From assembly GCA_043813075.1 (NCBI GenBank), contig JBDRLL010000020.1, positions 1 through 64,000 on the forward strand: a stretch of 64,000 nucleotides of DNA. Reading direction: 5' to 3'. Shown here one piece after another: positions 5,476-45,742 of this stretch. How positions within the stretch are numbered: position 1 is the first letter of the stretch; each line of letters starts with the position of its first letter. The stretch comes from Candidatus Altiarchaeota archaeon. GTDB taxonomy: Archaea > Altiarchaeota > Altiarchaeia > IMC4 > SCGC-AAA252-I15. The notes under the pieces are model-generated. The model worked only from the letters and a program-made list of their open reading frames with translations. It searched no databases and was not told the origin of the DNA. Position numbers and translations under genes: made by a program.

Positions 5476-6102
5476 TCAGCTTGTGCAGCAGCAGATTCTC
5501 CTGTATGTCGAGCAGTCATCGTCCAGGTTAAGCTGATGGTCTCCCTGGGGGCAGCCTCCCTCCTTGCAGTAGTGCCCGTCATACCCCCTCTGGTTGCATT
5601 CGTAGTCGCATTCATTCTCGTATATCCTCACGCACTCTCCTTTGACGCAGTCCTCGTATGTCTCGCACTTGTCAACCACCTCCTGCCTGATTTTTCCAAC
5701 GCACCTGGATGTCGGCGTGCCCCTGTTCTCGCACCTGTATGTTGTAGTGTAATTCCAGATGCTGTTTTTCCTGCATATGAATGTTGACACTACGCCCCCG
5801 CAGTCTTCATCAGAATCACATCTCCTGCCGCTCATGGTTGTGGTCATGCTTGTTGTCGTGACTGTTGTTGTGGTGACTGTTGTCGTGCTGGTCGACGTCG
5901 TCGAAGTGATTGTGGTGGTCGTGGTGGATGTGCTGGTTGTTGTAGTGGTCGTGTTGCGGGGTATCAATTCCACAGCCTTCCTAAAGTGATTCTTCGCGTA
6001 TTCCAGCAGTTTCCCCGGGGAGGCGGTGGATATGGCGAGGAGCATTATTGACGCGGAGATTATCGACAGTATGAGTAGGGCTTCAATCCAGTTCGCCATC
6101 AT
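5476..6102 (-). CDS. Membrane-anchored protein with a Thr-rich stalk and two Cys-rich domains
   Basis: N-terminal hydrophobic helix, a ~40-residue Thr/Ser run, then 16 Cys ending ICCCTS. Confidence 0.8.
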   Translation of the reverse strand: MMANWIEALLILSIISASIMLLAISTASPGKLLEYAKNHFRKAVELIPRNTTTTTTSTSTTTTTITSTTSTSTTTVTTTTVTTTSMTTTMSGRRCDSDEDCGGVVSTFICRKNSIWNYTTTYRCENRGTPTSRCVGKIRQEVVDKCETYEDCVKGECVRIYENECDYECNQRGYDGHYCKEGGCPQGDHQLNLDDDCSTYRRICCCTS

Positions 6103-10980: not shown

Positions 10981-11372
10981 AATACGTGATCAAGTACTCG
11001 CCGGAGAATACGAAAGAGCCGGTGCTGGCTGACGCGATACTAAGCACGAAAGTAAAGGTGAACATACTCACAGCAAGGCTAGACAGCGAGGAAGGCGTTA
11101 TGATACTCGAGGTCCTCGGAGACTCGAAGGATGCAAGAAAGATAGTGTCACACCTGAGGAAGCATGGTCTCCTCGTCGAGAAACTCGATGGCAATGTACT
11201 CAAGGATGATGATTGTTGCGTCGACTGTGGATTGTGCGTCGGCGTCTGCCCGACGGACGCCATCATCATGCACGATAAGCTAATGGAGTTGGACAATAGG
11301 AAATGCATCCTCTGTAGGGCTTGCGTTGAAGTTTGTCCCGTTAAGGCGCTTTCAATCCGTGAAGGCATATGA
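10977..11372 (+). CDS. NIL domain plus 2x[4Fe-4S] ferredoxin (MA1822/MJ0099-like partner subunit)
   Basis: KVNILTA NIL motif, CVDCGLCVGVCP and CILCRACVEVCP. ATGA overlap with the DUF39 gene. Confidence 0.9.
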   Translation: MKYVIKYSPENTKEPVLADAILSTKVKVNILTARLDSEEGVMILEVLGDSKDARKIVSHLRKHGLLVEKLDGNVLKDDDCCVDCGLCVGVCPTDAIIMHDKLMELDNRKCILCRACVEVCPVKALSIREGI

Positions 11373-12043
11373 AATGGTCTGTCGCATACGGTGAAACCGT
11401 ACTGAACATAGAGTGTGATACTGACCTTCGCTCAGAAGTGCTGGACGAAGTTGTGGCGAACTACACCCAACTACTCAACCACATCCATAAGAACCCGTTG
11501 TTCCTGTCGTCATATGAACCAATCGAAGCCAGTGAAGATGACCCAGGGATAGTCCGGATGATGTGCGATGCCTCAGCAAGATGCGGTGTCGGGCCGATGG
11601 CTGCCGTGGCAGGAACATTCTCAGAGATTGTCGGCAGAAAAATACATGAATCCACTTCAGAATACATCGTGGATAACGGGGGAGACATCTACATGAGCAC
11701 TGGCATGGAAAAAGTCGTCGGCGTGCACACGCCATCGGAAAGATTCTCCGACAAGATACGGTTTCTAATCGACTCAAGTGAAACGCCTCTAGGCATATGC
11801 TCCAGCTCATCAAAGATCGGCCATTCAGTGAGCATGGGAAGCGCGGATACTGTTGTCGCCTTCTCAGATTCAGCTGCTGTGGCAGACGCGGCGGCAACGG
11901 CAATAGCGAACAGCGTCAAAGGCCCTGATTCACTAGGGAGCTGCATATCACAGGCATCATGCATCAGAGGCCTTAGGGGAATACTCATCATCGTGGGCGA
12001 CGAGATGGGTGCGTACGGCAGATTGCCTAAAATCGTAGGATAA
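11369..12043 (+). CDS. UPF0280 / COG2122 ApbE-like protein (sulfide assimilation family)
   Basis: VGPMAAVAG, VDNGGDI, GICSSSSKIGHSVSMG and ADAAATAIAN. Confidence 0.9.
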   Translation: MKWSVAYGETVLNIECDTDLRSEVLDEVVANYTQLLNHIHKNPLFLSSYEPIEASEDDPGIVRMMCDASARCGVGPMAAVAGTFSEIVGRKIHESTSEYIVDNGGDIYMSTGMEKVVGVHTPSERFSDKIRFLIDSSETPLGICSSSSKIGHSVSMGSADTVVAFSDSAAVADAAATAIANSVKGPDSLGSCISQASCIRGLRGILIIVGDEMGAYGRLPKIVG

Positions 12044-12092: not shown

Positions 12093-15000
12093 ATGGTTTC
12101 CCGTTCAAGGCCACGGAAAATCTTACTTCTACTAGCATTTCTGCTATCTCTGGCACTGGTCTTACAGTCAGTATCCGCTGCCCCATCTCCTGACCCTGAC
12201 AAGGGAAAGGCAAGCGACTCGGACGATTTCACAAGGGCTTTTGACGAAGACCTGACACTCAAGTCGTTCGACAACCTGAAGGTGTATAACGGCACATTCA
12301 TGCTGCTACTCCAGGCGCCGGACAACATGACATTCAACCTCAACCATCCTGCAGTTAAAATCCTCGGGAAGCCGATCATGTCCGTAATAATCCCCATATG
12401 GGAATTCCTCATCGCCCTCGTCGGCATATACTACGTTTGGGGCGGGCTTTCCCCAGCGTCAAGGGCTCAGGCAAAGAACATGATGACAAAGCTGATACTC
12501 GGCCTAATATGCTGCAGCCTGGCTTATCCGATATTCAACCTTTTCCTTGACCTGGAGAGGTTTGCGCTAATCAACGTCCTAAGTGCGGGCGGCATCGTGC
12601 CAGACAGCTGGGACCCGTTCACCTCCACGCCTGCATGGGCTGTCGGGACAATCGGTCTCATAAGCTCGATAATAGGTTTGCTGACCTTCGGTTACGGGAT
12701 AGTCCTGTTGTGTCCCACATACTGTGCTCTAATCTCCATGTGGATAATGCCCTACATGATACTCGGCATGCGCAACATAATAGTCCTCGTACTAGGACTG
12801 TTCTTCCCCATCACCATACTCCTACTATCATTCGACTTCACCAAGGGTCTGGGCAACAAGCTGTTGCACATGAGCCTAGTATGGATTTTCGTACCAGTCT
12901 CGATGGCGGTGATGATAGTGCTTGTGGAAGTCCTCTCGCAGACTCCATGCACAACAGGCGTCGACTGCCTTCCACTCGGCCTCGCCACGCTTGCAGCATG
13001 GCTTCTCGTGGCCGCAGCCCCGATGATGATGACCAGCCTGATGGGCGCGGCCGGCGGACTCTTCATCTCCGCCGGGAGGACTACCGGAAATCCGCGTCTC
13101 ATATTCATGGGCGGCGTCATGCGCGGGCAGGGAGCGCAGGCTTTGACCGAGACCGCATACTACAGTCAGATAAGGGAGACGAGGGTGCAGGGCCCGAGGC
13201 CAGTCGCCGGAGACTATGCGAAGGCTGGTTCTGCTGGCCTCAATTCTCCCGACGGTTATGGTGCTCCGCCTCCCGCCTACCTGATTCGTCCGCCGATGGC
13301 TACCGGTAATGCGGGCGCTGGCGGCGGTTCTAGTGGCGGCGGCGCTGGCGGCGGTAAAGGAGGCAAGGGCGCTGGCGGCTCTGGCGGCAAGTCGGCTGGC
13401 GGCCCCGGTGGCGTTGTCACAGGGAGGACGGCTCCAGGATACGAGGGCTACGCTCACAGCAACCTGGCGCGGACTCGCGCGACCGCATGGCTTGCGAAAT
13501 ACGATACTCACGGCGTGTGGGACAGGGGCATATCAGTTGGAGAGCGGTTAAAGCGTTCCATATTCGGGATGGCCGCCGCCGGCGGATTAAGTCTTGAGAA
13601 CATCTCGGCAAGCCAGTACTACCGGCAGAGGGCTGAGGCATTATGGGGTCAGGGTGCTGCCGGCAAGGCGATGGCGGTTGCGTACGGACTCCGCGCTTTG
13701 GGCCATAACCTTGTCGTAACGCCGATGATGTATGGCGTCGGCGAGTTCACTAAGGGCGCTGTCCGATGGACTGTGGACACCCTGCCGATAGGCAAGAGTC
13801 TTATGCATGTGGCAAACCGGATGACTGGAATGTATGAGACGAAGAAGGTTATGGGTGACGACGGGAAGGAACGGGAGGTCGCAGTCTTCAACTACGGGTG
13901 GCAGAGTCACAGGGGCGTAGTCCGCGACCTTGGTAAGAACATCTACAGCCAGGCCCAGAAGGATGACGAGCGGAGGGCTAGGGGCGAGATGGTGTTGGGT
14001 GTTGAAGGCAGGTACGCTATCGGCGCGGCAGTGGGCGTCGGAATCGCCGCGGCATTCTTCGTGCCTTCCGTCGGACTCTCAGTGCCCATGATGGCTGCTG
14101 TCGGTGGCTTCATGTACGCGAGGATGATGAAGGCTGTCGGCAGGGAGATTACGCTGGCGGAGAATAACAAGGAGGCTTTGGACACGTACGATAAGGCTGA
14201 AAAGGATCACAGCAACTGGACTGCCAAGGGTGGTTTGTTCGACAGGATGGCTGCAGCCAAGTCCAGCTCAGACCACACTACCCTAAGGGACCAGGTGTGG
14301 GGTGACCTCACAATGCCTGAGAAGCAGAGCTTCGGCTACAATCCAGGCGACCCGTCCACAGAGGAGGCTGCCAAGAAAAAAGCCTACGACCACTATATGC
14401 CGGCTGCTAAAGTCAAGGACAACGTTTGGGGTGCGATGACCATGGGCGAGAAGATAACGATGGTTTCCGGCGCCAGGACCGGGTCGCGCGCGGGCATGAC
14501 TGTGGGAGACCAGGTGAGGCGCGCCACCGTGAGCGCGACCGCGGAGCAGAGCTTCTTCCCCTACCAGAACCTACTTGAAAGGGAGGCTAAGAGGATGGGC
14601 ATCAGCACTGCCGACGCGGAGGACAATGCGAAGAGGCATGCGTTGGACCGGGTCCGCAGGTCACGGCAGACCAAGATGTTCGGCCTCGCGACTACAACTG
14701 ACCTGGAGCGTGGGGGTAAGACGGTGGCTCCCGATATGATGAGCTTCAATGCGGCAAGATCCACACTCAAGTCTGTGGGCGTCGCATTCACGGACTTGAG
14801 CAAGGCAGAGCAGAAACGCTTCGTCGACGAGCGGGTGGCGAGCACCGGAGAGTCCGAGGATGTTGCCAGGAAGAAACTGGAGGGCACTCGGGTCGACTTC
14901 GACAAGCTATCCTCCTCCGACGAGCAGTATACTGTCATATCCAAGAAGCAGAGGGAGGGTCTCAGCCAGTCTGACGCCGAAGCTGTCGCAAAGTCTGGCA

Positions 15001-17276
15001 GCAGAGGGAGCGGCAGGATAGACTTCCGTTCACTAGACAAGGAGACGCGGGACCGCATCATAAGCCAGGAAGTCAAGGACAATCCCGGCTTGAGCAGGGA
15101 TGCGGCAGCCAAGTCACTATACTCAAGTGGCGTTGAATTCAGCAGGCTTACAGAGGCCGAGCAGGCTGAGATGGTGCAGGACATTCAGAGGCGCGGCCGC
15201 ATGAAGACTTCTAGCGAACGCTGGGTTGAGGAGCATTCCGGCGCCATAGTAACTGGCGTCGCATTGACCGCCCTAGCAGTCCCAATAGCCCTTGGCGCAG
15301 GTCTTCCACTGCTTCCGTCAGCTATTGCCGGTGTTGGAGTGTGGGCTTCCACAACCAAGCCTGCCCAATGGATGAGCAGGAAAGGCGCGGCTGGCACAAG
15401 CTTCGGGGTCAAGCTGCTTCTAGCGTCCGCACTGCCTGGAGGCGCGATAGTCTACCCACTATACGAGGTGTTCAGGCACGGCCAGAAGGCCGGGGCTGAG
15501 AGGGCTCGGAGACGCGCGACCGGGGAGAAGACTGCCACTGAACAGTGGGCTGAGTCGCATCCACGTTTGAGCCGTACCTTGAGGAATGTTGGGGTGGCTG
15601 GCGCAATCGCGTCAGGTTTGGGCGCGTTCATATACGGTGCTCACCGTGCCGGACAGTATTTCGGGGAGCGCGAGGAAACCAGGAAGCTGACGCGGATGGC
15701 TGAATCGCTGAAGTCAGGCCAGTTCGGCATAGGCCGGTTGAATGACGAGACAGCCAACAGGGTGGCGCGAAAGCTCATAGAGTCTGGGGTAGACACTCCA
15801 ATGCACCTGGCGAACATGAACCCCGGAGAATTAAGTGCAACTCTGGCAAATGCTGGATTGAGTGTCGGGGGTGTTGACGCGTCCCAAGTAAGGGCTGCTT
15901 TCCCCAGGTTGATGGCTGCCAGCACTGAGGATGAGAGGCTCAGGGTGTGGGAGAGTCTAGGATTGTCAACTCCTCAGGCAAGACAACTAACCGACTCATC
16001 ATGGCTCAGAAGCCAGAACAACATAGAAGACGCCTTAGAAGCTGAGAGGAGGGGGGGGTTGGATCCGGCTATCGCCGACAAGATAATCTACGAGGAGATG
16101 CAGAAGGCTGGCGTGCAACGCAGCCTCGGTCATTGGGATGCTACTAATGCTGCTAAGGCAGGCCGAGGTTTCAGCGGCCTCGACAGCAAGGGCAATCTAG
16201 TGTCGTTCACTAAGGAGGAGGCTGCTGACATGGCGAAGCAGGAGCCTGACGAGATAGACAAGAGGATCAAGGCCAAGGCAAGCGAGAGAGACCCTGACGC
16301 CACTACCGTGATGCGTGATGAAGTATTGGACCAGATACATGACGGAGCTATCTCCCAATCCAAGACAATGGACCCCACGTTCACTCACGTCACGGAAGCC
16401 CATGAACTCCTAGGGCTAGATGAGTCCGGACTACTCCAACAGTATGGGATACAGCATATGGGCCAGCTGGCTGAGACATCCACCCACAAGCTGGAGCAGA
16501 TATTCCGTTCCGCAGGCTATGAGGAAAAGTGGGGTATAAGACGGGACGACGACGGCAATCCTGTGCTCGACTCCTCAGGCAACACCCAGCGGGACCCGGA
16601 TGAATTCAGGCGGACTGTCCGCGACATACGGGACAACGCGAGCGTTCTATCAGGCCACGGCAGCGTCGACGACATAAAAGGTGTGGACGAAAACATATCA
16701 AGGGGACTGCAGGACCGGGGATACGACACCACAGGCGACATAACCTTCGCGAGGAGGGGTCAGATGATAGAGTCCGGGATAATAGAGCATGCTGAGGCTG
16801 ACGTCATCCGCAGGAACGCTAAGAGGCTTTCAGAGGAGGGGCACACCGCATTAGACGACCGGATGTTCCAGGGAACAAGGCTCACCGCCTCAGAGCAGTC
16901 GTCTGTGATCAGGTCACTGAACTCCAGGGGTATAACCGATACGAGTCAGGTGGCGTCTGCCGCACGCGGAGACCTAACCGACTCAGGCCTGGGAAGCCAG
17001 TCTGAGATGCAGTTAATCCGCAGGAACGCTTCAAACCTTGCGCGCCAGGGGTATGAGCGGCTGGATGCCCGCGTGTTCACCGGCACCAAGCTTGAGGGTG
17101 ATGCCGGAGCACAGGCCGGGATACTCAGGAGGTTGCAGAGGCACAAGGGTGTTACCACGACGTCCGAGCTTGCTGAGGCGTCAATGAGGGATATCCTGGG
17201 GGTGTCTGGGATAAACGAGTCTAACGTTGGTCGAATACAGAAAGAGGCTGCGAAAGTGTATGCGGAGAGCGAATGA
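12093..17276 (+). CDS. Giant membrane protein A (1727 aa): signal peptide, VirB6/TrbL-like multi-TM domain, Gly linker, helical repeats and a C-terminal helix-hairpin-helix array
   Basis: Signal peptide ending VSA; about 6-8 TM helices with IYY...SPASRAQAKNM..KLILG; HhH-like units such as DIKGVDENISRGLQDRGYDT and ILGVSGINESNVGRI. Confidence 0.75.
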   Translation: MVSRSRPRKILLLLAFLLSLALVLQSVSAAPSPDPDKGKASDSDDFTRAFDEDLTLKSFDNLKVYNGTFMLLLQAPDNMTFNLNHPAVKILGKPIMSVIIPIWEFLIALVGIYYVWGGLSPASRAQAKNMMTKLILGLICCSLAYPIFNLFLDLERFALINVLSAGGIVPDSWDPFTSTPAWAVGTIGLISSIIGLLTFGYGIVLLCPTYCALISMWIMPYMILGMRNIIVLVLGLFFPITILLLSFDFTKGLGNKLLHMSLVWIFVPVSMAVMIVLVEVLSQTPCTTGVDCLPLGLATLAAWLLVAAAPMMMTSLMGAAGGLFISAGRTTGNPRLIFMGGVMRGQGAQALTETAYYSQIRETRVQGPRPVAGDYAKAGSAGLNSPDGYGAPPPAYLIRPPMATGNAGAGGGSSGGGAGGGKGGKGAGGSGGKSAGGPGGVVTGRTAPGYEGYAHSNLARTRATAWLAKYDTHGVWDRGISVGERLKRSIFGMAAAGGLSLENISASQYYRQRAEALWGQGAAGKAMAVAYGLRALGHNLVVTPMMYGVGEFTKGAVRWTVDTLPIGKSLMHVANRMTGMYETKKVMGDDGKEREVAVFNYGWQSHRGVVRDLGKNIYSQAQKDDERRARGEMVLGVEGRYAIGAAVGVGIAAAFFVPSVGLSVPMMAAVGGFMYARMMKAVGREITLAENNKEALDTYDKAEKDHSNWTAKGGLFDRMAAAKSSSDHTTLRDQVWGDLTMPEKQSFGYNPGDPSTEEAAKKKAYDHYMPAAKVKDNVWGAMTMGEKITMVSGARTGSRAGMTVGDQVRRATVSATAEQSFFPYQNLLEREAKRMGISTADAEDNAKRHALDRVRRSRQTKMFGLATTTDLERGGKTVAPDMMSFNAARSTLKSVGVAFTDLSKAEQKRFVDERVASTGESEDVARKKLEGTRVDFDKLSSSDEQYTVISKKQREGLSQSDAEAVAKSGSRGSGRIDFRSLDKETRDRIISQEVKDNPGLSRDAAAKSLYSSGVEFSRLTEAEQAEMVQDIQRRGRMKTSSERWVEEHSGAIVTGVALTALAVPIALGAGLPLLPSAIAGVGVWASTTKPAQWMSRKGAAGTSFGVKLLLASALPGGAIVYPLYEVFRHGQKAGAERARRRATGEKTATEQWAESHPRLSRTLRNVGVAGAIASGLGAFIYGAHRAGQYFGEREETRKLTRMAESLKSGQFGIGRLNDETANRVARKLIESGVDTPMHLANMNPGELSATLANAGLSVGGVDASQVRAAFPRLMAASTEDERLRVWESLGLSTPQARQLTDSSWLRSQNNIEDALEAERRGGLDPAIADKIIYEEMQKAGVQRSLGHWDATNAAKAGRGFSGLDSKGNLVSFTKEEAADMAKQEPDEIDKRIKAKASERDPDATTVMRDEVLDQIHDGAISQSKTMDPTFTHVTEAHELLGLDESGLLQQYGIQHMGQLAETSTHKLEQIFRSAGYEEKWGIRRDDDGNPVLDSSGNTQRDPDEFRRTVRDIRDNASVLSGHGSVDDIKGVDENISRGLQDRGYDTTGDITFARRGQMIESGIIEHAEADVIRRNAKRLSEEGHTALDDRMFQGTRLTASEQSSVIRSLNSRGITDTSQVASAARGDLTDSGLGSQSEMQLIRRNASNLARQGYERLDARVFTGTKLEGDAGAQAGILRRLQRHKGVTTTSELAEASMRDILGVSGINESNVGRIQKEAAKVYAESE

Positions 17277-17282: not shown

Positions 17283-20200
17283 ATGAAGAGGCTAGACTTA
17301 AGGACCATACGGGCGGCGAGCATCACGCGTAAAGTACTGGCCCTAATATTCCTCGGTATTATGGGTCTGCCATTGATATCCTCCACTGTGTCTGCCGAAC
17401 TCATCACTGGCGCGATAATAGTGCTGTCGGCGCTGCTCATCAGCATTGCCTTAAGCGCACTCATGGACTTGTTTGCCATGGCGTGTGTCGCACTCATACA
17501 GGATGCTGCGATATACATACAATTGTATCCCTGCGTATATGCTGGCCCAAGCGGCACAGGCACTTGTGGTTCAGGTTCTATCTCAACATTCTTCTCTATC
17601 ATGGGCGTGACCTACACGCAAGACCCTGTGATAAGGGAGATGAATCGCGTGCTCATAGAATGGTGCAGCGGGTTGTTCATGTTGGCGATAGCATACACCG
17701 GGATATACCTGATATTCATGGCAGGTTCCCCGCACGGCAGGTCTCAGGCTAAAGACATGTTCGTGAGGCTGATAGTCGGCATGGTCATGGTCGCAGTCTC
17801 CCCCATGATATTCCAGTGGATGATAGACATAACAACATCAGTCTCCGGAGAGTTGATGAACCAGGCCATAGCCGCATCCCCCCCTGGTACAGTATCATTT
17901 AGGATAGCCTTCTGGAAGAACATAAAATACTGTTGTACATTCATCGTCTTCATGATAATCCTAGTGCTAGCCACTTTCGTGGCTGTGCTCCGTTTCTTTG
18001 CGATATACATACTAGCATGTCTCTGGCCTCTAGCACTCTTCTTCTATTACTTTGAATTCAGGATACCGTTCCTCGAGGATATAATCAATTTTCGTGCTAT
18101 CGGCCAGTCCATGATAAAACTATCTGTCATCACGATACTCACCCAGTTGATTCAGGCATTCTTCCTTGCGATAACGCTCATAAACCTTTCTGTGAACAGC
18201 GGTTCCCAGATGATAGACTTCATACTAATGTGCGCTGGATTCCTGGGTGTCGTATTCACTCCGATGATTGCAATGCAGTTGCTTGGATGGATAGGCGGAC
18301 TCGTGCACATGGCTTCCACAAGGCCGAGTACTGCCGCCACAAGATTCCTTGCGACCATAATGAGGGGTTACTCAATGGGAGATGCGCTGGTGACTTCGAG
18401 CGGTCAGACAATGATTGGTAGGAACCTCGGTACGGGAACTGGTGGTGAGGCTAAGGGTCCTTCAGGAGGTTTTTGGAGTGGCGTGCCCTCTGGCCATTAT
18501 TTCGGTTCAGACTATTCTATGGATGCCGGATTGTTCAGTGGTTCAGGGGACACGAGGGGGACAGGCTTCACGAACCCCATCTGGTCTGGTAAGAGCGGTT
18601 TCGTTGGTGGAGGCTCGTCTTCAGGTGGTTTGGGCGTGTCTGGAATGCCCTTCGCAGGTCGTACTGGTGTGGTGGCGGGGGGGAGTCCAGGTAGGGGGCT
18701 TAGGCGTGGAATGATTTTACCCAAGTCTACTGCTAGGGCGGGTGGTGCTGGTGGTGCTGGTGGTGCTGGTGCTGGTGGTGCTGGTGGTGCTGGTGGTGCT
18801 GCTGGTGCTGGTGGTGCTGGTGCTGGTGGTGCTGGTGCTGGTGGTGCTGGTGCTGGTGGTGCTGGTGCTGGTGGTGCTGGTGCTGGTGCTGGTGGTGCTG
18901 GTGGTGCTGGTGCTGGTGGTGCTGGTGCTGGTGGTGCTGGTGCTGGTGGTGGCGTTATTGCAGCTAAAAGAAGTGGTGGCGGTGTTGGTGGTGGTGCTGG
19001 TGGTGGCGCTGTTGGCGGGCCTGGAGTCGGAGCACCATCGACAGGCGCAATTTCAGGTGGGCGTTCAGGCTCAAGCGAATCAGGTAATGCATCCGCGATG
19101 GATATGGGCACAGAACAAGGCCCCGCTGGAACACAGGGAATGAGGCATGAATGGACGCCCGCCCAAGGTGATGGCGTTAAGCGGGCGGTAAACCGTATGG
19201 ACGACGTCGACAGGGCTGAGGCAGCCCGAATGCGTGAATGGCTCGCATACGACGCCCAACTCAAGCAGGAAGCCGCAGCCAAAGAAGCCGCGTTAAGAAG
19301 GGCTACTGACGCAGAAGAAGCCCAGAAGAAGGCGGCTGCAGAACGACAGGCTATAGGAAGTTCAATAGCCGCATCACAGGCTGCGCACATGAAGAGCGTG
19401 GAATTCAACCGTAACATAGAACAACAAAAGAATGAGGCGATGGCCCAAGCACTCATGCAGGAGGCGAACCTGAACCCAGGTGACGCCAGCTTCGCTATCT
19501 CAGGGCCAAGGATGAAGGACCAGTGGGAGAGCATATTCCGGGATACGAGTTCAAACGGCATGCAGGGCATGCTGAATTCAGTCAACAGTCAGGAACCGCA
19601 GATAGAGAGGGGTGTTGAGGCGAAGGCGGCTTCCGCAGGCAGGACACTCACTCCAGAGGAAAAGAGGAGTGAAGTCAGCAGGGAGAAGGCGAAGATACTC
19701 CGTAGATACGGCGACGACTACGCGAGGAAACAGATGCTAACACAGTCTGGCGACCCGGTTGTCGGAAACAGGATAAACAACTTCAACAGCATAGGATTCC
19801 AAGACCGTCCGAAGGCTTGGAGTAACATGGTCGACATAGCGGAGGCAAAGACTGGTTCATCATCAATGAATGCGTTGAGGACTTACGTGCGAGGCCCGTT
19901 TGACGGTATGGTGGAGAAGGCTCGCATGTCCGGAGACCCTGACGGGTACATACAAAAAGTCCGCGACACTGAGGTCTCAAGGGCATCCGAGATAGGGGTC
20001 CCCGCCAGCTCCGGACTACAGCATGAAAGACCAGTGGAACATCCAATACCAAGACCATCCCCCTCAAGGCCGACAATAGAGCGGGCAACCCCCATGTCAC
20101 AGACGTCTATAGCATCACGTAAGCAGGTGCCGAGGACTGCTGAGGCGGTGAGGATGGAAGAGCGGAGTGTTGGTGCTGGCTTGCCTAAGTCTGTTGGCGG

Positions 20201-23200
20201 TAAGAAGGTTGTTAAGAAACACGTCCCAGAGGCCAGCAGAACGAGGATGCGTGCTGAGACACCTCCAATGCCTGCTGGCTTAAAGCATGAACCACCTTCA
20301 AAGCCTGGAATAGAACCTCAACAGGCTCCTGAAATTCCAGTCATGCCTGCCACCGTTCCGGAGACAGCATACGTTCCTCCTGAAGCAGTCCCACTAAGCA
20401 CTCCACACGAGAGAGAGGCTGTTAGCGAGAACAAGCCTGCGTCTGCTGGAGTGCCTGTGACTCCAGCTGTAATACCTGATTCATCTAAACGCAAGCATCT
20501 GGGGCATACTGTAATACAGGCTAAACGCGACTTACGCGGGAGCATACGGGCAGTCAACAGCCGTCTGGAGGGGTTGAATTCCCCGCTGGAATCGGAGGCT
20601 AACGGAGCCCGCCAGTATCTTGCGGAAGGGTTGAACCGCTTGTATGGCACCAACTTTAGTGCAGACAACTTCAGGGGCGCTTCAATAGGGTCCGACGGCG
20701 TCCTACAATTTGGTGACGGGGGTTCTGCAGGAATTGAGGAGCTTATGTCCAAGACGCCTGAAGGATATGCTGTGGTATCACAGAGGCTGGGAGTATCCGG
20801 TGCTGAAGGATTCGCGGGGAGGGCTGCGGAAGGAGATGCATTCCAGAGGGGGGGTGTTGCCTTCGTGAAGGACAGTGGAGACAAGCACGCGAGACGGCAT
20901 GAGAAAGAGCACAGGGAAGATGTTTTGATGCCGCACAGGCAGGGTATAGACGCTACAGTATCTGAGATAAAGGCGTTCTCACGCAACGTTGAGGACCGGG
21001 AGCTCGGCTGGTCAGACGTCGGGGGGGCACTGCAGACTGAATACATGCCTGACTTCACGGCAGGACGGGATATGACTCGAGAGGAGGAAGAAGCCTCACG
21101 GGCCAAAGTAGACCACGCAGTATCCAATTCCAGGAGATTCGTCCGCCATGCCACACAGGAATTCGAGGCAATGGGGTTAACCCCAGAGAACGCCAGGGCG
21201 CGGGCATTCAAGCGGCTGAGAAACATGTGCGAGAGTTGCGTGCACTTAGACCAGTTCAACGCGATGACAGACCAGGTGCTCGCAGGCCAGATTACGTCAC
21301 GCGATGCGGTTGGCATGGCGCTAGCAGAGTCGGGATCGATAATAGCCCAACCAACAACAGACTACAATGCAACACCACAACAGGCGTATACTGAAGCACT
21401 AGACCATAAGCTGGCTGTAGGCGGATCATACGGCACCCGCACATTACTTGGAGTGGGTTCATCGGAGTTGTCAGTTCTGGAGGGATACAGTATACGCGAG
21501 ATATGCGCTAGGCCAGACCTGACGAGGGAGCAATTGTTAGGCCTCCAGCATTATGGTGCTGGTTTAAGGTCGGCGGCTGTTGAACGCGGTATTGCTGGAG
21601 ACGAACTAGCCTACACCGACAGGGTGGGCAGGGCTATAAGCCAGAGGGCGGTTGCTGAAGGAGTGAGCAGGGGTCTCATAACCCCCGAGGATGTGGGAGT
21701 GACTAGTGCTGCTCTTGAAAGGTCATTCCAGGAGGATTTGGTGAGAGGCTACATACCTGAAGACCAGAAGATTGTCATAAGACAGGCTTTACAGCAGATG
21801 GCTGTCACAGTACCAAAGCCGGCTGCAGAGCCTCCTGCTCCTGCAGGTGTGCGGCCAAGGCCTGGTGTGGAACCAGGAAAGCATGCTCCAGTTAAAAAAC
21901 CTTCTAAGCTGCCATCCGGAAAACCGAAGCCCTCCAGAGAGCCGGTTACCTCCAGTGAAAAACCTACGTCTGGTGAAGGCCCTAAGCCTGGTGGAGTATC
22001 TAGGCCTGTTGAAGCCACTGTCAGAGCATCACCATTACCTAAGACTCCAGGGGTTGATGCGGACAGGATACTGCACGACAGCATACAGCAGGCCACCCAG
22101 GAAGTCGGCTACCAGACCCCTCGGGAACAGCAGGCTTACGCCAGGTCCCAGGATGCATACGAGAAATTCATCGGATCTGACCATACTCCTCGTGACGCGG
22201 AAGTAGTCGCCACTGAAGTAAGGCATGTTATAGACAACAGGGACATGGATCGTTTCGATAAGTGGGTTAGCATAGCAGAGATACTGTCTGTTGGAATGCC
22301 TGAGATACCGGAACCAGAACCTGTTTCATACGAAGAGGCACCGCCTGAAGTCCCGCGAAAAGTTCCTTTCCTCCAGATGAAGGAGACTAAGTCAACCCTC
22401 CTTGGCGGCTCTATGGGTAGGGAAAGGGCTGGCGGCGAATCAGATGCTGGCAGGGGATACGGATGGACTTCCATGGCGGAGAAGCGAGACGGGGAAGCTT
22501 CAGGCGATAAACCATACGGCTTCACTTCAATGGCTGAAAGGCATGCCGGCAAATCAGTGAACGCGTTAGGTGAGACAATGCGTGAGAAGGCTGGAGAATC
22601 ATTAAGCGAGGCCACCACTGCAAGACCAGTCGGCGAGCACCAGGCAGGGGTCTCAGGAGAATCATCTAAAGGGTTCCAGACGATGGTCCGGCACGGGGAA
22701 GGACAGGGCCAACCCATCCACGGAGCAAAACCGTTCATACCCACGACAGTGGCTGCTAAGACAGCAGAGAAAGTGTCTGAGGGAGTCTCAACTCCGGGTG
22801 TAACACCCGCTCCAAAAACGGCTGCCAGCGGGGAGGAGGCGCCTCAAGCCAAACGCAGGCCATCAGCGACTTCAACCGACTCTGACATGGCGATACCCTC
22901 GCCGCCACATCGGTCTCAGCTGCCAAAGCCGGAGATGGGTGATGAGGAATACTCCGCCACCCTCACCAAAATACGTAGGATGGCTCTCGCAAGGTCTCTG
23001 GAACGGGTCTCTGAGGATGTCTTAAGGCGGGAGGTGCGCAGCCTGACCTCAGAAAAGAAAGTCGATGTCGCCGACGAGGTGAACGGCATGCTATCTGAAA
23101 TGCATCACAAATTCCAGGTCATAGGCAGGTATGGTGGTGAGGAATCCAAGAGCAGGCTATCCTCCTTCAAGGACGTTTATGGTAACGCAAGGGGATACGC

Positions 23201-23849
23201 TCTAAACGGGAACTATGCGATGGCTGTTGATGACATATCTGCGATATCCTCTCAGGTAGACACAGTGTACGCTCAGGCGCTTCAGGAGCAGGGGGTAAAG
23301 GTGCAGGCGCAGCAGATGATACATCAGGCTAAAAACGATCTTAACGCGATGATGAACGGGATGGCTTCGGCGCCAGCGTCACTATCCAACGTAGAGTCTG
23401 CGAAGAAAGACATGCAGGCTGCATTAACTGCCGCTGAAGGCCACATGAGGTCTGGCGAATACGAGAGCGCTCTCGCGGAGATATCCAAGCATCAGGGCCC
23501 ACAGCATGCGGATGGTGGGGAGTCCGAGTCTGCGGTGAAGGGGAAGCATGGTGAGGGGGATTCAGCCGATAAGCCTTATGGTTTCACTCCGATGGCTGCA
23601 GCAGGCAAGGTGGAGGAGTCTAGCGTTCCTGGCGAGCCTTCGCAGCCTTCCATCATGGGTGAAAAACACAAGACTGGAATATCCCCTGGCTCACGTAAGT
23701 CCTCACTACATTCGATGATGCGTGACCGCCATAAATCTGGGGATGAACATACGGATGAAGGCGAGTCTGGTGAACCCGGAAGCGGCCTTGGCGGTGACAC
23801 CATGATGCGTAAGAAAGGATCTAAGAAAAAGAAAAAGACCGGGAAATAG
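17283..23849 (+). CDS. Giant membrane protein B (2188 aa): paralogous VirB6/TrbL-like multi-TM domain, Gly/Ala repeat, Pro-rich linkers, HExxH domain and basic C-terminus
   Basis: TM domain with IYL...SPHGRSQAKDM..RLIVG; (GAGGA)n; HEKEH...SEIKAF; C-terminal KKGSKKKKKTGK. It starts 6 nt after gene A. Confidence 0.75.
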   Translation: MKRLDLRTIRAASITRKVLALIFLGIMGLPLISSTVSAELITGAIIVLSALLISIALSALMDLFAMACVALIQDAAIYIQLYPCVYAGPSGTGTCGSGSISTFFSIMGVTYTQDPVIREMNRVLIEWCSGLFMLAIAYTGIYLIFMAGSPHGRSQAKDMFVRLIVGMVMVAVSPMIFQWMIDITTSVSGELMNQAIAASPPGTVSFRIAFWKNIKYCCTFIVFMIILVLATFVAVLRFFAIYILACLWPLALFFYYFEFRIPFLEDIINFRAIGQSMIKLSVITILTQLIQAFFLAITLINLSVNSGSQMIDFILMCAGFLGVVFTPMIAMQLLGWIGGLVHMASTRPSTAATRFLATIMRGYSMGDALVTSSGQTMIGRNLGTGTGGEAKGPSGGFWSGVPSGHYFGSDYSMDAGLFSGSGDTRGTGFTNPIWSGKSGFVGGGSSSGGLGVSGMPFAGRTGVVAGGSPGRGLRRGMILPKSTARAGGAGGAGGAGAGGAGGAGGAAGAGGAGAGGAGAGGAGAGGAGAGGAGAGAGGAGGAGAGGAGAGGAGAGGGVIAAKRSGGGVGGGAGGGAVGGPGVGAPSTGAISGGRSGSSESGNASAMDMGTEQGPAGTQGMRHEWTPAQGDGVKRAVNRMDDVDRAEAARMREWLAYDAQLKQEAAAKEAALRRATDAEEAQKKAAAERQAIGSSIAASQAAHMKSVEFNRNIEQQKNEAMAQALMQEANLNPGDASFAISGPRMKDQWESIFRDTSSNGMQGMLNSVNSQEPQIERGVEAKAASAGRTLTPEEKRSEVSREKAKILRRYGDDYARKQMLTQSGDPVVGNRINNFNSIGFQDRPKAWSNMVDIAEAKTGSSSMNALRTYVRGPFDGMVEKARMSGDPDGYIQKVRDTEVSRASEIGVPASSGLQHERPVEHPIPRPSPSRPTIERATPMSQTSIASRKQVPRTAEAVRMEERSVGAGLPKSVGGKKVVKKHVPEASRTRMRAETPPMPAGLKHEPPSKPGIEPQQAPEIPVMPATVPETAYVPPEAVPLSTPHEREAVSENKPASAGVPVTPAVIPDSSKRKHLGHTVIQAKRDLRGSIRAVNSRLEGLNSPLESEANGARQYLAEGLNRLYGTNFSADNFRGASIGSDGVLQFGDGGSAGIEELMSKTPEGYAVVSQRLGVSGAEGFAGRAAEGDAFQRGGVAFVKDSGDKHARRHEKEHREDVLMPHRQGIDATVSEIKAFSRNVEDRELGWSDVGGALQTEYMPDFTAGRDMTREEEEASRAKVDHAVSNSRRFVRHATQEFEAMGLTPENARARAFKRLRNMCESCVHLDQFNAMTDQVLAGQITSRDAVGMALAESGSIIAQPTTDYNATPQQAYTEALDHKLAVGGSYGTRTLLGVGSSELSVLEGYSIREICARPDLTREQLLGLQHYGAGLRSAAVERGIAGDELAYTDRVGRAISQRAVAEGVSRGLITPEDVGVTSAALERSFQEDLVRGYIPEDQKIVIRQALQQMAVTVPKPAAEPPAPAGVRPRPGVEPGKHAPVKKPSKLPSGKPKPSREPVTSSEKPTSGEGPKPGGVSRPVEATVRASPLPKTPGVDADRILHDSIQQATQEVGYQTPREQQAYARSQDAYEKFIGSDHTPRDAEVVATEVRHVIDNRDMDRFDKWVSIAEILSVGMPEIPEPEPVSYEEAPPEVPRKVPFLQMKETKSTLLGGSMGRERAGGESDAGRGYGWTSMAEKRDGEASGDKPYGFTSMAERHAGKSVNALGETMREKAGESLSEATTARPVGEHQAGVSGESSKGFQTMVRHGEGQGQPIHGAKPFIPTTVAAKTAEKVSEGVSTPGVTPAPKTAASGEEAPQAKRRPSATSTDSDMAIPSPPHRSQLPKPEMGDEEYSATLTKIRRMALARSLERVSEDVLRREVRSLTSEKKVDVADEVNGMLSEMHHKFQVIGRYGGEESKSRLSSFKDVYGNARGYALNGNYAMAVDDISAISSQVDTVYAQALQEQGVKVQAQQMIHQAKNDLNAMMNGMASAPASLSNVESAKKDMQAALTAAEGHMRSGEYESALAEISKHQGPQHADGGESESAVKGKHGEGDSADKPYGFTPMAAAGKVEESSVPGEPSQPSIMGEKHKTGISPGSRKSSLHSMMRDRHKSGDEHTDEGESGEPGSGLGGDTMMRKKGSKKKKKTGK
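18741..18950 (+). repeat. Coding tandem repeat of 70 codons built only from GGT and GCT (Gly/Ala)
   Basis: Continuous GGTGCT/GGTGGTGCT units from 18741 to 18950. Confidence 0.95.
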
Positions 23850-25383: not shown

Positions 25384-26382
25384 TTAATATACTCCCTCCC
25401 TTGAGTCCCTGTATCGTAGTTCAAGGTTGTTTTCCTCCACCACCCTATCCACCAGTCCCGACACTTTTATCCTCCTCGTAAGATAGTCCGCTATCCTTAT
25501 GGGGTACACTTGAGGATGTATGTGGTCCCTGTCATTAATCCAGACCGATACGAGCGACTCCAAGTCCTCCTGAAAGTTGTCGTAATTGAACTCCCATCTA
25601 ACAGTCATCGGGGCAGACTCTCCTGATGGAAGGCTCTCCATCCTCTTTCCAGGGAGCTTTAGGTAGCATACGTTTATCCCCTGCCTTTTGTCCACCACGT
25701 ATTCCATTGGATCCAATGCTATGTCAAAGAGGAGTGTGTTCGTGCAGTTGAAGCCAAGGCTCCTAGACAGGTCTGTCGCGTGACTGTCCTCCACCATGCC
25801 CACAACCCTCTTTTCACTCAGGAGCCTTCTACTAGCATCAACAGCATCCGAATTCTCGGAGCCATTATCCCTAAGCTGCAGGTTGGCGGTGTTGGTGTAA
25901 AGGCTTCCGTCGACCAGCAGGATGTCCGCATCCAAGCCATCCTTCACTTCCAGGAGCGCTGAATACTCCCTAGCGACCCTAAGTGCGTTAGCCCGCTCTT
26001 CAATGTCAGAATAGGGTATGAAGACGCCGAAGTCGACGTAAGACTCATACTTAAGCTCCCTGTAAGGTAGAGTGCCCTCCCCCACTAGCGGGTCACTGTT
26101 CTCACCACCATCGTATTCCGCATAGACGACTACCGTGTGCAAACCCCATAAAGCGTGATACCTCAACTCCCTCTTAATCATGGAAGAGTCGCACGCCAGC
26201 ATCCTTATGACACCAGCATCATCATTGATGGATATCCTCTTGAAATCTCCTCCGGAACCCTCCACCTTACGTCTTATCTCCCCCCTATCAAGATTTCTAT
26301 GCGAGTCAAGACCCTCAATCAAGGCGGACTTCGACTTTAGAACCGATTCATCTAGGGAGAAGTCTGGTCTTAATTCCCTCAT
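25384..26382 (-). CDS. nurA: NurA-family nuclease
   Basis: RNase H-like acidic motifs LACDSS and LLVDGSL, VVGMVEDS, and C-terminal YPIRIAD. Confidence 0.75.
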   Translation of the reverse strand: MRELRPDFSLDESVLKSKSALIEGLDSHRNLDRGEIRRKVEGSGGDFKRISINDDAGVIRMLACDSSMIKRELRYHALWGLHTVVVYAEYDGGENSDPLVGEGTLPYRELKYESYVDFGVFIPYSDIEERANALRVAREYSALLEVKDGLDADILLVDGSLYTNTANLQLRDNGSENSDAVDASRRLLSEKRVVGMVEDSHATDLSRSLGFNCTNTLLFDIALDPMEYVVDKRQGINVCYLKLPGKRMESLPSGESAPMTVRWEFNYDNFQEDLESLVSVWINDRDHIHPQVYPIRIADYLTRRIKVSGLVDRVVEENNLELRYRDSREGVY

Positions 26383-27272
26383 TGTAACCCGTATTCCTTG
26401 AGCTCCCTCTTCAATAAGTGCACCTGCTTTTCATCCAGCGCAGAAGGGTCTATGGATACGACAAGCCTGCTATCGTGCTGTACCACAACATCCTTTACCG
26501 ATTGTATCATCCGTATCACGTCCTCAAACTTGTTGTGCATTATCAGGTATTCAACACCATCCAAGAGCACAATCCCGTCATCTGTCGTTGACACAAACTC
26601 CTTTATGGTCTGGCTCAGTCCTATCATGCTCGTGGGCTCTATACTATCATCATAACCCTTCTCCCTGGTCAGCCATATGATGGGCGTCTTCAATAGATTG
26701 TATTTATCCCTGATTTTTGGCGGGTAATTGCGTGTAATACATAGTCCGTGTATCCCGTGTTTCACAAGGTCTGAGAACAACTCCAGCGCGGAAATGCTCT
26801 CAGGACTAGACTCCTCTATTATGTGGCTTGAACCAGGATTCACCTTATACTTGGCTTCACCGAGACCCTCCTCATCATTCGCACTCTCCACCAGCATGAA
26901 CTTGTATTTCACCTTACTATCCCCCATCCTACTGTAGAGAAGGTAGCCTCCCACTGTTATCGACACCGCTATCAGCGTCCTGCTAACAGACCCTATCATG
27001 CTGAACGTGGAGACATTTACTCTGAAGCTCTGGTAAAGCCCCAAATTCATGTTGGCGCTGCTGAACATCATCGGAAGGTCTGAGAGATTCAACAACAGTA
27101 TCATGAGGACAGACACGAATATCCACACCCACCCTATGTTCTCCTTCCCAGAGAGGTTGAAGTGCTTGAAAAGCCTGGTCCAATAAACCACGGCGAGAAA
27201 AGACAAGAGTATAGTCAGAATATTAAAGTACAATTCCGTATTCGACAGAAGCAAAGACTTGTATACTATCAT
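26379..27272 (-). CDS. Membrane protein with a C-terminal DUF835 (inactive KaiC-like) domain
   Basis: Three N-terminal TM helices, then GLCITR.YP, IIWLT, VLLDGVEYLIMHNKF and IDPSALDEKQVHLL. Confidence 0.88.
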   Translation of the reverse strand: MIVYKSLLLSNTELYFNILTILLSFLAVVYWTRLFKHFNLSGKENIGWVWIFVSVLMILLLNLSDLPMMFSSANMNLGLYQSFRVNVSTFSMIGSVSRTLIAVSITVGGYLLYSRMGDSKVKYKFMLVESANDEEGLGEAKYKVNPGSSHIIEESSPESISALELFSDLVKHGIHGLCITRNYPPKIRDKYNLLKTPIIWLTREKGYDDSIEPTSMIGLSQTIKEFVSTTDDGIVLLDGVEYLIMHNKFEDVIRMIQSVKDVVVQHDSRLVVSIDPSALDEKQVHLLKRELKEYGLQ

Positions 27273-43754: not shown

Positions 43755-44658
43755 CCTCATAAGCAAGCTAAGGGAGGCTACCGCCGTATACGCGGGCCTC
43801 AGGGCATACAAGCTGGTGTTAGACCTCGCCATCAGCTTCCTCGCCGCATCCATACTGCTGCAGATAATCGGCTTCCAGATGATATACTCCCTCATACCCG
43901 CAGGCATATACGTGCTAATCCAACTGGCCTTAGAACTCAGGAGGATGAACGTCATCAAGAGGATAGGCGGCAGGTACCATGGCCTCGACGAGAGCCTGGA
44001 GACCGCCTACGAGTACCGGGACGCTGACAACATAATCGTCCAGAGCCTTATGTCAGACGTCTCTAAGGAGATGGACAACGTGGAGTCGTCCACCTTCTTC
44101 GACCAGCGTGAGATAACCCGGCGGGTGATTGTGACGATAGTGCTATTGTTCGTGATGATGACGATAACAGTACTGGACTTGAGGGGTGCTTTGATAGATT
44201 TCATGGTGGACAACACAAATCTGGGCAGGGACTTGAACGACAAGTACGGTGATGCGAAAAACCAGTTCCAGACCATGTTCGGGGACCGGTGGGAGCAGAG
44301 CAACTGGACTACCGACAAGGAGAAGGAGAAGCTTGGCGCGGAGTCAGGGGGCGACAGGCCTGGGATAAGCGAGGGCCCAATACCCGGCACTGGAGGTGGT
44401 GTAGGCAGCGACTCTGGTAAAGACATATACGGGAAGGCTTCTTCAGCCAACATAAACGGGGAGAACGTACAATTTCAATTGCATCCCGAGTATGGTGGTG
44501 AGATAGAGATACGCGAGTCCGGGGGTCGTATAGTGCAGAACAAGTTCGAGCTCGCGACCGTGGAATCAGCCGAGACGTGTGATGAATGCGTTATAGGGCC
44601 TGAGCACGAGGAGGTTGTGCGCAAGTACTTCGAGAAGATACTCGCGGAAAATAAATGA
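43747..44658 (+). CDS. Membrane protein associated with the MoxR/vWA operon
   Basis: Three TM helices, L.E.LETAY motif, Gly-rich linker and C-terminal EEVVRKYFEKI. Confidence 0.78.
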   Translation: MDDLISKLREATAVYAGLRAYKLVLDLAISFLAASILLQIIGFQMIYSLIPAGIYVLIQLALELRRMNVIKRIGGRYHGLDESLETAYEYRDADNIIVQSLMSDVSKEMDNVESSTFFDQREITRRVIVTIVLLFVMMTITVLDLRGALIDFMVDNTNLGRDLNDKYGDAKNQFQTMFGDRWEQSNWTTDKEKEKLGAESGGDRPGISEGPIPGTGGGVGSDSGKDIYGKASSANINGENVQFQLHPEYGGEIEIRESGGRIVQNKFELATVESAETCDECVIGPEHEEVVRKYFEKILAENK

Positions 44659-44686
44659 GGTTAAATACAATTATCATAGGTGTTTA

Positions 44687-45742
44687 ATGATGGCAACTGG
44701 AGGAAAAAGCATCTGGGATTCGGCAGACGACTCCCAGACTTCGAAGCAAAGGAAATCAGAGAGACGGGAGGAGGAGCTGGATTTAAAGGCAGTCTACTCC
44801 CAGATGGGCGGTACCTACTCGAGCATCAAGGAGGAGGTAGGCAAGGTGATAGTCGGTCAGGACGACATATTAGAGCAGCTTCTGATAGCCATATTCACGG
44901 ACAGTCACGCGCTGCTGGAGGGATTCCCTGGGCTGGGCAAGACCATGATGGTTAGGACGCTATCGAGCGTGATGGACATGAAGTTCCGCCGCATACAGTG
45001 CACTCCAGACCTGATGCCTTCAGACATCACCGGAACCCACATAGTGGAGGAGGACGCGGACGGCAGGAAGCGCTTCCGATTCGAGGAGGGTCCGGTGTTC
45101 ACCAACATACTTCTGGCGGACGAGATAAACCGTGCGACGCCAAAATCACAGTCCGCCCTGCTCGAGAGCATGCAGGAGCGGCAGGTTACCATGGGCAACA
45201 CCACCCACAAGCTGGACCGCCCGTTTTTCGTGCTCGCAACCCAGAACCCCATAGAGATGGAGGGAACATACCCGCTGCCCGAAGCCCAGATAGACCGTTT
45301 CCTGCTGAAGATCATGGTGGGCTACCCGACGAAAGACCAGGAAGACAGGATAATAGAACGGTATACCAGTGAGATATCCCCCACAGTAAGGCGCGTCCTA
45401 AAGAAGGAGCAGGTCCTGGCCATACAGGAGCTGGCTAAGAAGATGCCGATATCCCGGGAAGTGAGGGAATACGCCCTTAACATAGTGACTGCGTCAAGGC
45501 CTGACAACGACGGGGCAGCGTCATCCTACCTCGACTACGGCGCCTCACCGAGGGCTTCCATCGGCCTCGTCCTAGCCGCAAAGGCGATGGCGCTGCTGAG
45601 GGGCAGGAACTACGTGAGCAGGGATGACGTGAAGGCCATGTCCTACCCTGTCCTAAGGCATAGGATAATCCTGAACTTCGAGTCCGAGAGGAAGGGCATG
45701 AGCACCGACGACGTGATAAACGAAATCCTTAAGGAAGTATAG
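44687..45742 (+). CDS. moxR: MoxR-family AAA+ ATPase
   Basis: GFPGLGKT, RIQCTPDLMPSDITG, LADEINRATPK.QSALLE, ATQNPIE.EGTYPLPEAQ.DRF and GASPR. Confidence 0.95.
   Translation: MMATGGKSIWDSADDSQTSKQRKSERREEELDLKAVYSQMGGTYSSIKEEVGKVIVGQDDILEQLLIAIFTDSHALLEGFPGLGKTMMVRTLSSVMDMKFRRIQCTPDLMPSDITGTHIVEEDADGRKRFRFEEGPVFTNILLADEINRATPKSQSALLESMQERQVTMGNTTHKLDRPFFVLATQNPIEMEGTYPLPEAQIDRFLLKIMVGYPTKDQEDRIIERYTSEISPTVRRVLKKEQVLAIQELAKKMPISREVREYALNIVTASRPDNDGAASSYLDYGASPRASIGLVLAAKAMALLRGRNYVSRDDVKAMSYPVLRHRIILNFESERKGMSTDDVINEILKEV

Follow-up and report, generated by a model that had tools for sequence, protein, structure and literature searches.

RadA-type helix-hairpin-helix units on the tail of a giant VirB6-like membrane protein from an uncultured archaeal order

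We analyzed a stretch of 64,000 nucleotides from a Candidatus Altiarchaeota archaeon (contig JBDRLL010000020.1 of assembly GCA_043813075.1, positions 1 to 64,000; hereafter, the window). Gene A of this window (12093..17276, on the plus strand, as are all the features of gene A given below) encodes a giant membrane protein of 1727 amino acids (aa), which resembles an extended VirB6 and carries a C-terminal array of helix-hairpin-helix (HhH) units. Three of the units are solid and two are probable, and their sequence profiles and predicted fold bring them close to the N-terminal domain of RadA and Rad51. We propose that the array may be a cytoplasmic, multivalent DNA clamp, tethered at the extended-VirB6 channel of a machine derived from a type IV secretion system (T4SS), a reading to which we give a probability of about 40%. 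What is new here is the HhH array as an added domain on an otherwise known type of protein, the extended VirB6.

The part of the protein under study corresponds to the last 520 codons of gene A, which a preliminary description had presented as a tail of about five HhH-like modules. The five peptides quoted there, as well as the string IRRNA..L...G...LD.R.F.GT.L shared by the last modules, were all present in the translation of gene A. The tail start given at 15727 was one base out of frame (34 stops), the in-frame start being 15726. When the tail was compared with itself by windowed Smith-Waterman alignment, the 70-aa windows at 1531 and 1601 reached a score of 129, against 24.0 +/- 4.9 (maximum 55) in 2000 shuffled trials. 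The high-scoring windows lay between residues 1511 and 1727 with a spacing of about 70 residues, and the unit-against-unit alignment was gapless over 64 columns. An independent confirmation came from P0003, the sole full-length relative of gene A that was found (1653 aa, 33% identity over 99% of the query, same genus). A repeat-only hidden Markov model (HMM) based on the four P0003 units alone, and independent of gene A, found exactly three units in A, at residues 1537-1589, 1593-1659 and 1662-1722 (independent E-values, iE, of 1.5e-9, 3.9e-12 and 1.4e-12 at Z=1). It also matched the bona fide Pfam HHH_5 domain of P0006, a protein described below, with an iE of 3.6e-8.

These three clear (HhH)2-type repeats were named U1 (16623..16841, residues 1511-1583), U2 (16842..17051, residues 1584-1653) and U3 (17052..17273, residues 1654-1727). 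Upstream, the probable HhH-like module U0 (16374..16577, residues 1428-1495) and the probable, divergent module U-1 (15705..15932, residues 1205-1280) were in register with the other units in alignment A4, and were missed by the repeat-only HMM (iE 0.1-0.2, or no match). For U-1, sub-threshold Pfam matches were obtained with HhH-GPD (E 0.03) and with DUF4332, a family that the preliminary description had suggested to look for in the tail (15.5 bits against a cut-off of 23.2, E 0.02, tail residues 16-43). The array of the preliminary description thus holds, with three solid units and two probable ones, the latter with sub-threshold support. The number of clear units differs between the two orthologs, with three in A and four in P0003. 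As for the literal pattern L...G[IVY]....[LIV] from which the modules had been recognized, the tail has only two matches, where shuffled sequences would give 0.08 (P 0.003); the case for the units is carried by profile and fold, and not by this pattern. At the DNA level there was no tandem repeat, TRF giving only one 9-bp, 2-copy row, and BLASTP of A against itself gave no off-diagonal match.

Searches with the units pointed to the HHH_5 and RadA families. U3 matched Pfam HHH_5 (PF14520) at residues 1684-1720 with 27.1 bits in the whole protein and 33.4 bits in the tail alone, for a cut-off of 27. The HHH_5 assignment anticipated in the preliminary description was therefore obtained above the gathering score for U3, each of the other units remaining below it; one of seven units matched HHH_5 individually (E 8.8e-4). 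Positions 6-63 of the NCBIfam RadA model PRK04301 matched residues 1524-1581 of A, in U1 (E 5.5e-6), and the NusA C-terminal repeat TIGR01954 matched residues 1685-1719, in U3 (E 3.5e-4, 20.6 bits against a cut-off of 48.15); both scores are far under the whole-family cut-offs, as expected because a single domain is matched. A SAM_EPH match was also recorded in the tail (E 3.9e-4). Against PDB sequences, the unit profiles retrieved DMC1, RAD51, RadA (1pzn) and NusA AR first (E 0.0034 to ~0.1), phmmer of the tail gave no match at E <= 10, and the ESM Atlas gave no usable match for residues 1200-1727.

U2 was folded by AF2 with an alignment of all 11 units from A and P0003. The model (pLDDT 90.2, pTM 0.77) consisted of five helices, at positions 6-9, 16-28, 34-39, 42-46 and 53-69, in keeping with the (HhH)2 fold, where a linker helix connects two HhH motifs. 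Among 48,161 representative chains, the best VIA matches of this model were the C-terminal HhH domain of AF1548 (Z 8.3, root-mean-square deviation (rmsd) 2.0, 60 residues) and the yeast Rad51 N-domain (Z 8.0, rmsd 2.4, 61 of 70 residues), it being understood that a Z of about 8 may reflect a common helical arrangement. They were followed by NusA AR, the RAD51B and RAD51C N-domains, PolQ domain 5, DisA, UvrC, Pol X, HhH-GPD glycosylases and many SAM domains; NusA AR1/AR2 scored Z 6.2-6.5, and the NusA AR and SAM matches overall Z 6.0-6.5. All the rows inspected were HhH or SAM proteins. The qualitative top rows of Foldseek were RadA, Rad51, HhH-GPD, NusA and SAM, with a probability of up to 0.96 and TM values of 0.46-0.63. 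A 516-aa model of the whole tail, from a 2-sequence alignment, was of low confidence (pLDDT 62.4). In it, the U0 region (model residues 217-315) matched the PolQ helicase-like domain (Z 7.5), AF1548 and NusA, and the Rad51 N-domain with Z 6.9 (rmsd 2.5, 63 aa). The winged-helix identity that this same model suggested for U1/U2 (Rex Z 6.1, IdeR Z 4.2) was dropped after the confident U2 model had been obtained.

Against the fold assignment stand the caution on Z values given above and the lack of any Foldseek match at E <= 0.001, both for the single U2 model, where this is usual for 70 residues, and for the 516-aa tail model searched against the PDB. We nevertheless accepted a (HhH)2/SAM-like fold, as predicted by the model for U2 and extended to the other units through alignment A4, because the list of matches was uniform in family and agreed with the sequence profiles. 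The predicted fold is thus of the kind that the preliminary description had expected.

The relationship with RadA was confirmed by the distribution of the 11-unit profile, which matched in 36 of 41 related genomes. Besides A and P0003, most of the 50 matches listed fell near the start of an open reading frame (ORF) of 303-378 aa, of which there was one per genome. In the genome of gene A this ORF is RadA (Rad51 6.8e-96; HHH_5 at residues 3-55). A second match that was checked, in genome G034 (L039:2-2338, minus strand), is also RadA, here split by an intein with a LAGLIDADG domain (Intein_splicing 6.1e-19). The remaining ORFs of 303-378 aa are presumably RadA as well, judging from their size and their coincidence with HHH_5 matches. 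The genome of gene A encodes 4 HHH_5 proteins and the unit profile picks RadA alone; therefore, the tail units belong to the RadA-N subtype of HHH_5. Both profile and predicted fold thus support the earlier attribution of the tail to RadA/Rad51 N-terminal, HHH_5-type domains. Like the N-domains of RadA, Rad51 and DMC1, the units of A have a five-helix fold in the model, and they share with RadA the G-I/L-S/N type of the second hairpin. They differ in their first hairpin, F-x-G-T instead of P-G-V-G in the RadA type, and in their arrangement: here a membrane protein ends in 3 to 5 of them in tandem, whereas the domain of RadA is single and precedes the recombinase core.

The N-terminal part of gene A begins with a probable signal peptide (12093..12179, residues 1-29, with a hydrophobic peak at residues 5-32 and a putative cleavage site at ...SVSA/AP). 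A polytopic VirB6/TrbL-like membrane domain follows (12213..13127, residues 41-345), which is common to a family of paralogs and includes a VirB2/T4SS-pilin-like helical hairpin (12378..12542, residues 96-150) with a conserved SPxxRxxAK loop. Six to seven hydrophobic segments lie between residues 90 and 320, and about 1400 mostly hydrophilic residues come next. Gene A thereby has the make-up by which VirB6 is defined in a 2025 review (PMC12857230), namely at least five hydrophobic helices and a large hydrophilic C-proximal domain. Within the extension are a Gly-rich low-complexity linker that is missing from P0003 (13299..13415, residues 403-441), a hydrophobic hairpin-like segment kept in P0003 (14007..14126, residues 639-678, with a 36-aa hydropathy peak), and another such segment (15231..15347, residues 1047-1085) with two weaker hydrophobic stretches after it, to about residue 1185.

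The membrane domain was matched in 39 of the 41 related genomes. Multiple and tandem copies were frequent, in proteins of ~300 to >2400 aa. In a 16-member alignment of this family (A3), 11 of the 16 members matched Pfam T4SS_pilin (PF18895), with a best E of 6.3e-7, and P121 and R124 of the pilin-like loop were nearly invariant. For A itself this match had 16.1 bits (E 0.012) against a cut-off of 26.6 bits, and for a 1736-aa paralog of the same genome, 26.4 bits. The channel-like identity of the rest of the domain is weakened by two results: TrbL (PF04610) was matched by only 3 of the 16 members (best E 0.002), all below the cut-off of 25.9 bits, and the A3 profile had no match among PDB sequences. 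The paralog P0005 gave 16.3 bits with TrbL, gene A no TrbL match at E <= 1, and a word-indexed search for short homologs of residues 60-345 returned none. Thus, the N-terminal domain of gene A weakly resembles a T4SS VirB2 hairpin joined to a VirB6/TrbL channel subunit. The fusion to a translocation channel put forward in the preliminary description is upheld to that extent, on the basis of weak Pfam matches.

The tail itself has a narrow distribution, which counts against the DNA-clamp reading. Among 1.84 billion representatives, a search with the tail found only itself, P0003 (1.6e-34) and a weakly similar repeat protein, P0004 (5.5e-4), so that the tail is restricted to one genus. P0004 has 543 aa, a signal-peptide-like N-terminus and seven nearly identical repeats of ~70 aa with a weak likeness to the tail units, for which Pfam listed RNA_pol_A_CTD, RAD51D_N and SAM_2; it may be a secreted HhH-like array. 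The orthologs of gene A in other genera are shorter (1093-1455 aa), their similarity to A ends at about residue 880, and they gave no unit-profile match; therefore, the tail was gained within one genus. Such a pattern, together with the different number of units in the two orthologs (3 and 4) and an identity of ~30%, would be expected if the tail were a decayed array without specific ligand, that is, a fast-evolving spacer that arose by domain accretion. We consider this very improbable, since a foldable core has been kept across both orthologs (as seen in the pLDDT of 90.2 with the 11-unit alignment), since the reading frames have stayed open for 1727 and 1653 codons, and since HhH tails are found on VirB6-like paralogs of other genera as well, a recurrence that speaks for selection.

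Two such paralogs were identified. P0006 (743 aa, from another genus) matched HHH_5 with 8.1e-19 in two stretches placed after an Arg-rich linker, and a 708-aa protein of genome G011 (yet another genus) matched HHH_5 with 3.1e-4. Both proteins have the membrane domain of the A3 family (E 1e-54 and 3e-58, respectively). Three homologs of P0006 were found, two of them unrelated in architecture, and its type of tail had no relative elsewhere among 49 genomes of the order. Counting gene A, HhH tails are thus present on VirB6-like paralogs in at least three genera. This suggests that HhH modules have been attached independently to a channel-like family and that the combination is useful rather than accidental. 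We regard this recurrence as the strongest argument for a function of the combination.

Concerning the side of the membrane, the segment right after the membrane domain of A has a net charge of +15 and an isoelectric point (pI) of 9.96, and the linker of P0006 contains 21 K/R against 1 D/E. According to the positive-inside rule, such basic segments after the membrane domain favor the cytoplasm. Also, the 1400-aa extension of A contains no Cys, and N-glycosylation sequons are at chance level (6 observed, 5.2 expected). From these sequence features, the tail most likely faces the cytoplasm. This orientation is made less certain by an ambiguous count of membrane crossings, A and B (the next gene, described below) differing by one hydrophobic segment in the aligned core and hydrophobic hairpins occurring later in A, and by the R388 VirB6, most of which lies in the periplasm according to the same review (PMC12857230). 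An external C-terminus is therefore conceivable, and the preliminary description had taken the tail for a membrane-tethered, multivalent DNA receptor, with ComEA as a known example. Facing outward, such a receptor would capture environmental or donor DNA and pass it on to the channel fused with it. In its favor, A joins HhH modules and a T4SS-like channel domain in one membrane protein, and the weak relative P0004 combines similar repeats with a signal-peptide-like N-terminus. However, the strongly basic segments of A and P0006 argue against export, as do the missing Cys and the chance frequency of sequons; moreover, the tail is acidic, and the ComEA-type family HHH_3 was not among the six families listed for it by Pfam at E <= 10. 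An outward-facing receptor was thus not borne out, and appears quite improbable to us.

The reading that we prefer, a cytoplasmic clamp, can be described as follows. Gene A would be an extended VirB6-type subunit of a machine that derives from a T4SS and has been retained in the chromosome throughout an archaeal order. Its N-terminal VirB2-like hairpin and polytopic VirB6-like domain would sit in the membrane as part of the translocon, and its long hydrophilic extension would end in the RadA/Rad51-N-type (HhH)2 array, with three clear and two divergent units. This array would form a flexible, multivalent and sequence-independent clamp on the DNA backbone, tethered at the channel, and, being most likely cytoplasmic, it would hold or ratchet DNA that enters or leaves the channel. 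In this scheme, we infer that the tail binds DNA.

Several observations speak against this scheme, and those on the hairpins, on the charge and on the uses of the fold speak against DNA binding itself. The Gly-hydrophobic-Gly (G-h-G) motif is the hairpin signature that contacts phosphates; U2 has it in its hairpin 2 (GLG) and U-1 in its hairpin 1 (GIG), and it is mostly degenerate in the other hairpins, which read G-T-x, G-V-D, G-I-I or G-I-N. The HHH_5 threshold was reached by one unit only, and gene A was absent from the genome-wide HHH_5 listing at E <= 0.001. The tail is acidic (pI 5.26, net charge -18), with charges of -1, -7, -5, +1 and 0 for the units. Furthermore, (HhH)2 and SAM folds also serve in protein-protein binding, as in NusA AR, and Pfam scans of the 64-kb window revealed no secretion ATPase, integrase, mobile-element gene or other T4SS gene.

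It could thus be asked whether the tail is a docking scaffold, whose acidic (HhH)2/SAM-like modules recruit or cluster the ATPase, RadA or other subunits through protein-protein contacts and do not touch DNA. The acidity of the tail and of most units, the degenerate G-h-G motifs, the high rank of NusA AR1/AR2 and of many SAM domains in the structural search, and the TIGR01954 and SAM_EPH matches would all agree with such a role. On the other hand, the nearest relatives of the units in sequence are the RadA, Rad51 and DMC1 N-domains and not NusA, and the RadA N-domain of the same genome is likewise acidic (net -7). In addition, P0006, a protein of the same kind, has a basic and canonical HhH region (net +6) after its Arg-rich linker, which looks like a nucleic-acid-binding part. 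We therefore judge a docking scaffold to be somewhat unlikely, and we retain the DNA clamp as the working explanation.

Comparison with known systems shows what gene A has in common with them and where it stands apart. Like the extended VirB6 proteins (the Rickettsiales VirB6 paralogs, MPF-FA) and CedA/TedA, A combines a polytopic N-terminal domain with a huge hydrophilic extension. As in those systems, several paralogs occur per genome, some of them beside a VirB4-like ATPase. CedA and TedA are VirB6-like, and the N-terminus of CedA resembles its own pilin (PMC9905601), which recalls the pilin-like N-terminal hairpin of A. A dispersed CedA paralog, CedE, is also required in Ced (PMC11868833). 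The likeness to Ced and Ted is one of parts list only: a VirB4-like ATPase and a VirB6-like protein with a pilin-like N-terminus, both chromosomal and lineage-conserved. Compared with the extended VirB6, the similarity of the A family to TrbL/VirB6 is below the cut-offs, the extension of A has recognizable HhH domains, and A and B lie apart from the ATPase. For the hydrophilic domains of extended VirB6, the 2025 review (PMC12857230) gives the role as 'not yet known'. To the extent of our search, which left supplements and most subscription papers aside, no publication on the subject combined VirB6 with helix-hairpin-helix, the one paper retrieved appearing off-topic, nor was this combination found in the literature on Ced/Ted or on VirB4/VirB6 in uncultured archaea.

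Other proteins share isolated features with A. ComEA is, like A, a membrane-anchored protein with C-terminal HhH in a DNA-transport context, and the idea of a tethered DNA-binding ratchet is common to both; it has one (HhH)2 module, outward and basic, in contrast to the 3-5 acidic-to-neutral units of A, which are probably cytoplasmic and do not match HHH_3. Topoisomerase V also has many tandem (HhH)2 domains in an archaeal protein; its structural echo in the 516-aa model is weak (Z 4.8; Foldseek E ~1), and A is membrane-bound and lacks a topoisomerase or repair domain. NusA AR1/AR2 are tandem acidic (HhH)2 modules with a predicted structural similarity to the units of A (Z 6.2-6.5); they bind proteins, not DNA, and the units of A are not attached to a NusA.

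A VirB4-like ATPase was found elsewhere in the genome of gene A. Contig C10 of this genome (G000) carries three further paralogs of the membrane domain and a T4SS-like cluster (loci L016:7776-19998 and L024:940-5354) with VirB6-like proteins of 2125 aa and 770 aa, ORFs of 156 aa (zinc-ribbon-like), 402 aa and 294 aa, and an ATPase of 759 aa (P-loop_TraG 7.1e-26, AAA_10, DUF87). The 2125-aa and 770-aa paralogs lie within ~12 kb upstream of the ATPase gene. The 770-aa paralog is the closest to it, followed in order by the 402-aa ORF, the 294-aa ORF, which has weak PrgI and TraC matches, and the ATPase. The ATPase was matched in 38 of the 41 related genomes, with 59-87% identity for near-full-length matches, and usually has two VirB6-like paralogs, one mid-size and one giant, within ~10 kb. 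This cluster thus looks like a vertically kept, domesticated chromosomal apparatus derived from a T4SS. Genes A and B lie away from it, on another contig, and in the clamp reading A would cooperate with it. The same genome gave no convincing candidate for a VirD4-type coupling protein, PF02534 aligning to two ORFs of ~510 aa over no more than its first ~60-100 profile positions; mcrA was not found either in this genome, which is 89% complete. A broader scenario can be drawn, in which the order keeps a third lineage-wide, chromosomal, T4SS-derived machine for DNA exchange beside Ced and Ted, with a translocon made of several giant VirB6-like paralogs. In place of the missing coupling protein or relaxase, channel-fused HhH arrays of the RadA-N type would grip DNA at the cytoplasmic mouth and pass it to RadA for recombination. 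We regard this complete scenario as rather unlikely.

Directly downstream of gene A, gene B (17283..23849, plus strand, 2188 aa) begins after 6 bases, and the two genes are probably in the same operon. Gene B is a distant paralog of the membrane domain of A: tblastn of residues 84-345 of A against B gave 20% identity (E 1e-7), and B matched T4SS_pilin with an E of 0.0015. BLASTP of A against B was not significant (E 2.3), in contrast to the tblastn and profile comparisons. No HhH units were detected in B with the A4 profile. Gene B also contains about 90 residues of Gly/Ala low-complexity sequence, and a (K/G)(P/Y)YG(F/W)T(S/P)MA-like motif is present three times in the C-terminal half. The C-terminus of B is polybasic, as are those of the paralogs P0005 and P0006, but not that of A.

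The genes surrounding A and B are archaeal housekeeping genes. Upstream of A lie HcyBio, NIL-ferredoxin and CBS/HTH regulator genes. Downstream come an AMP-phosphorylase-like gene, NurA, DUF835, a HAD hydrolase and Trm1, and further away, subunits of a Mbh/Mrp-type hydrogenase, a geranylgeranyl reductase and a MoxR-DUF58-VWA set. In the two genomes of the genus, a 224-aa ORF is conserved immediately before gene A (11369-12043, plus strand, in the window, and L018:6573-7250, minus strand). It was rejected as a partner of A; it had no Pfam match, may be a UPF0280/ApbE-like protein and probably belongs with the adjacent HcyBio and NIL-ferredoxin genes. At 25384-27272 (minus strand), the NurA-domain gene is followed directly by the DUF835 gene, and no HerA-type partner turned up in Pfam scans of the larger ORFs of the window. 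A 208-aa ORF with mucin-like (Thr/Pro-rich) low-complexity matches (5476-6102, minus strand) is flanked by a gene of the aconitase family and one for an isocitrate/isopropylmalate dehydrogenase. Finally, the genes for a MoxR AAA ATPase, a DUF58 protein and two VWA/BatA-like proteins stand in a row at 44615-51147 (plus strand), beside a gene for a FG-GAP beta-propeller protein on the opposite strand.

Our data indicate that the extension of one extended VirB6-like protein now has a recognizable and testable type of domain, a tandem (HhH)2 array. They also suggest that an uncultured order of archaea has a conserved VirB4/VirB6-like apparatus, Ced and Ted having been described in other lineages. 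Should the array prove to bind DNA, one would see how a minimal archaeal T4SS can deal with its substrate when it has no coupling protein.

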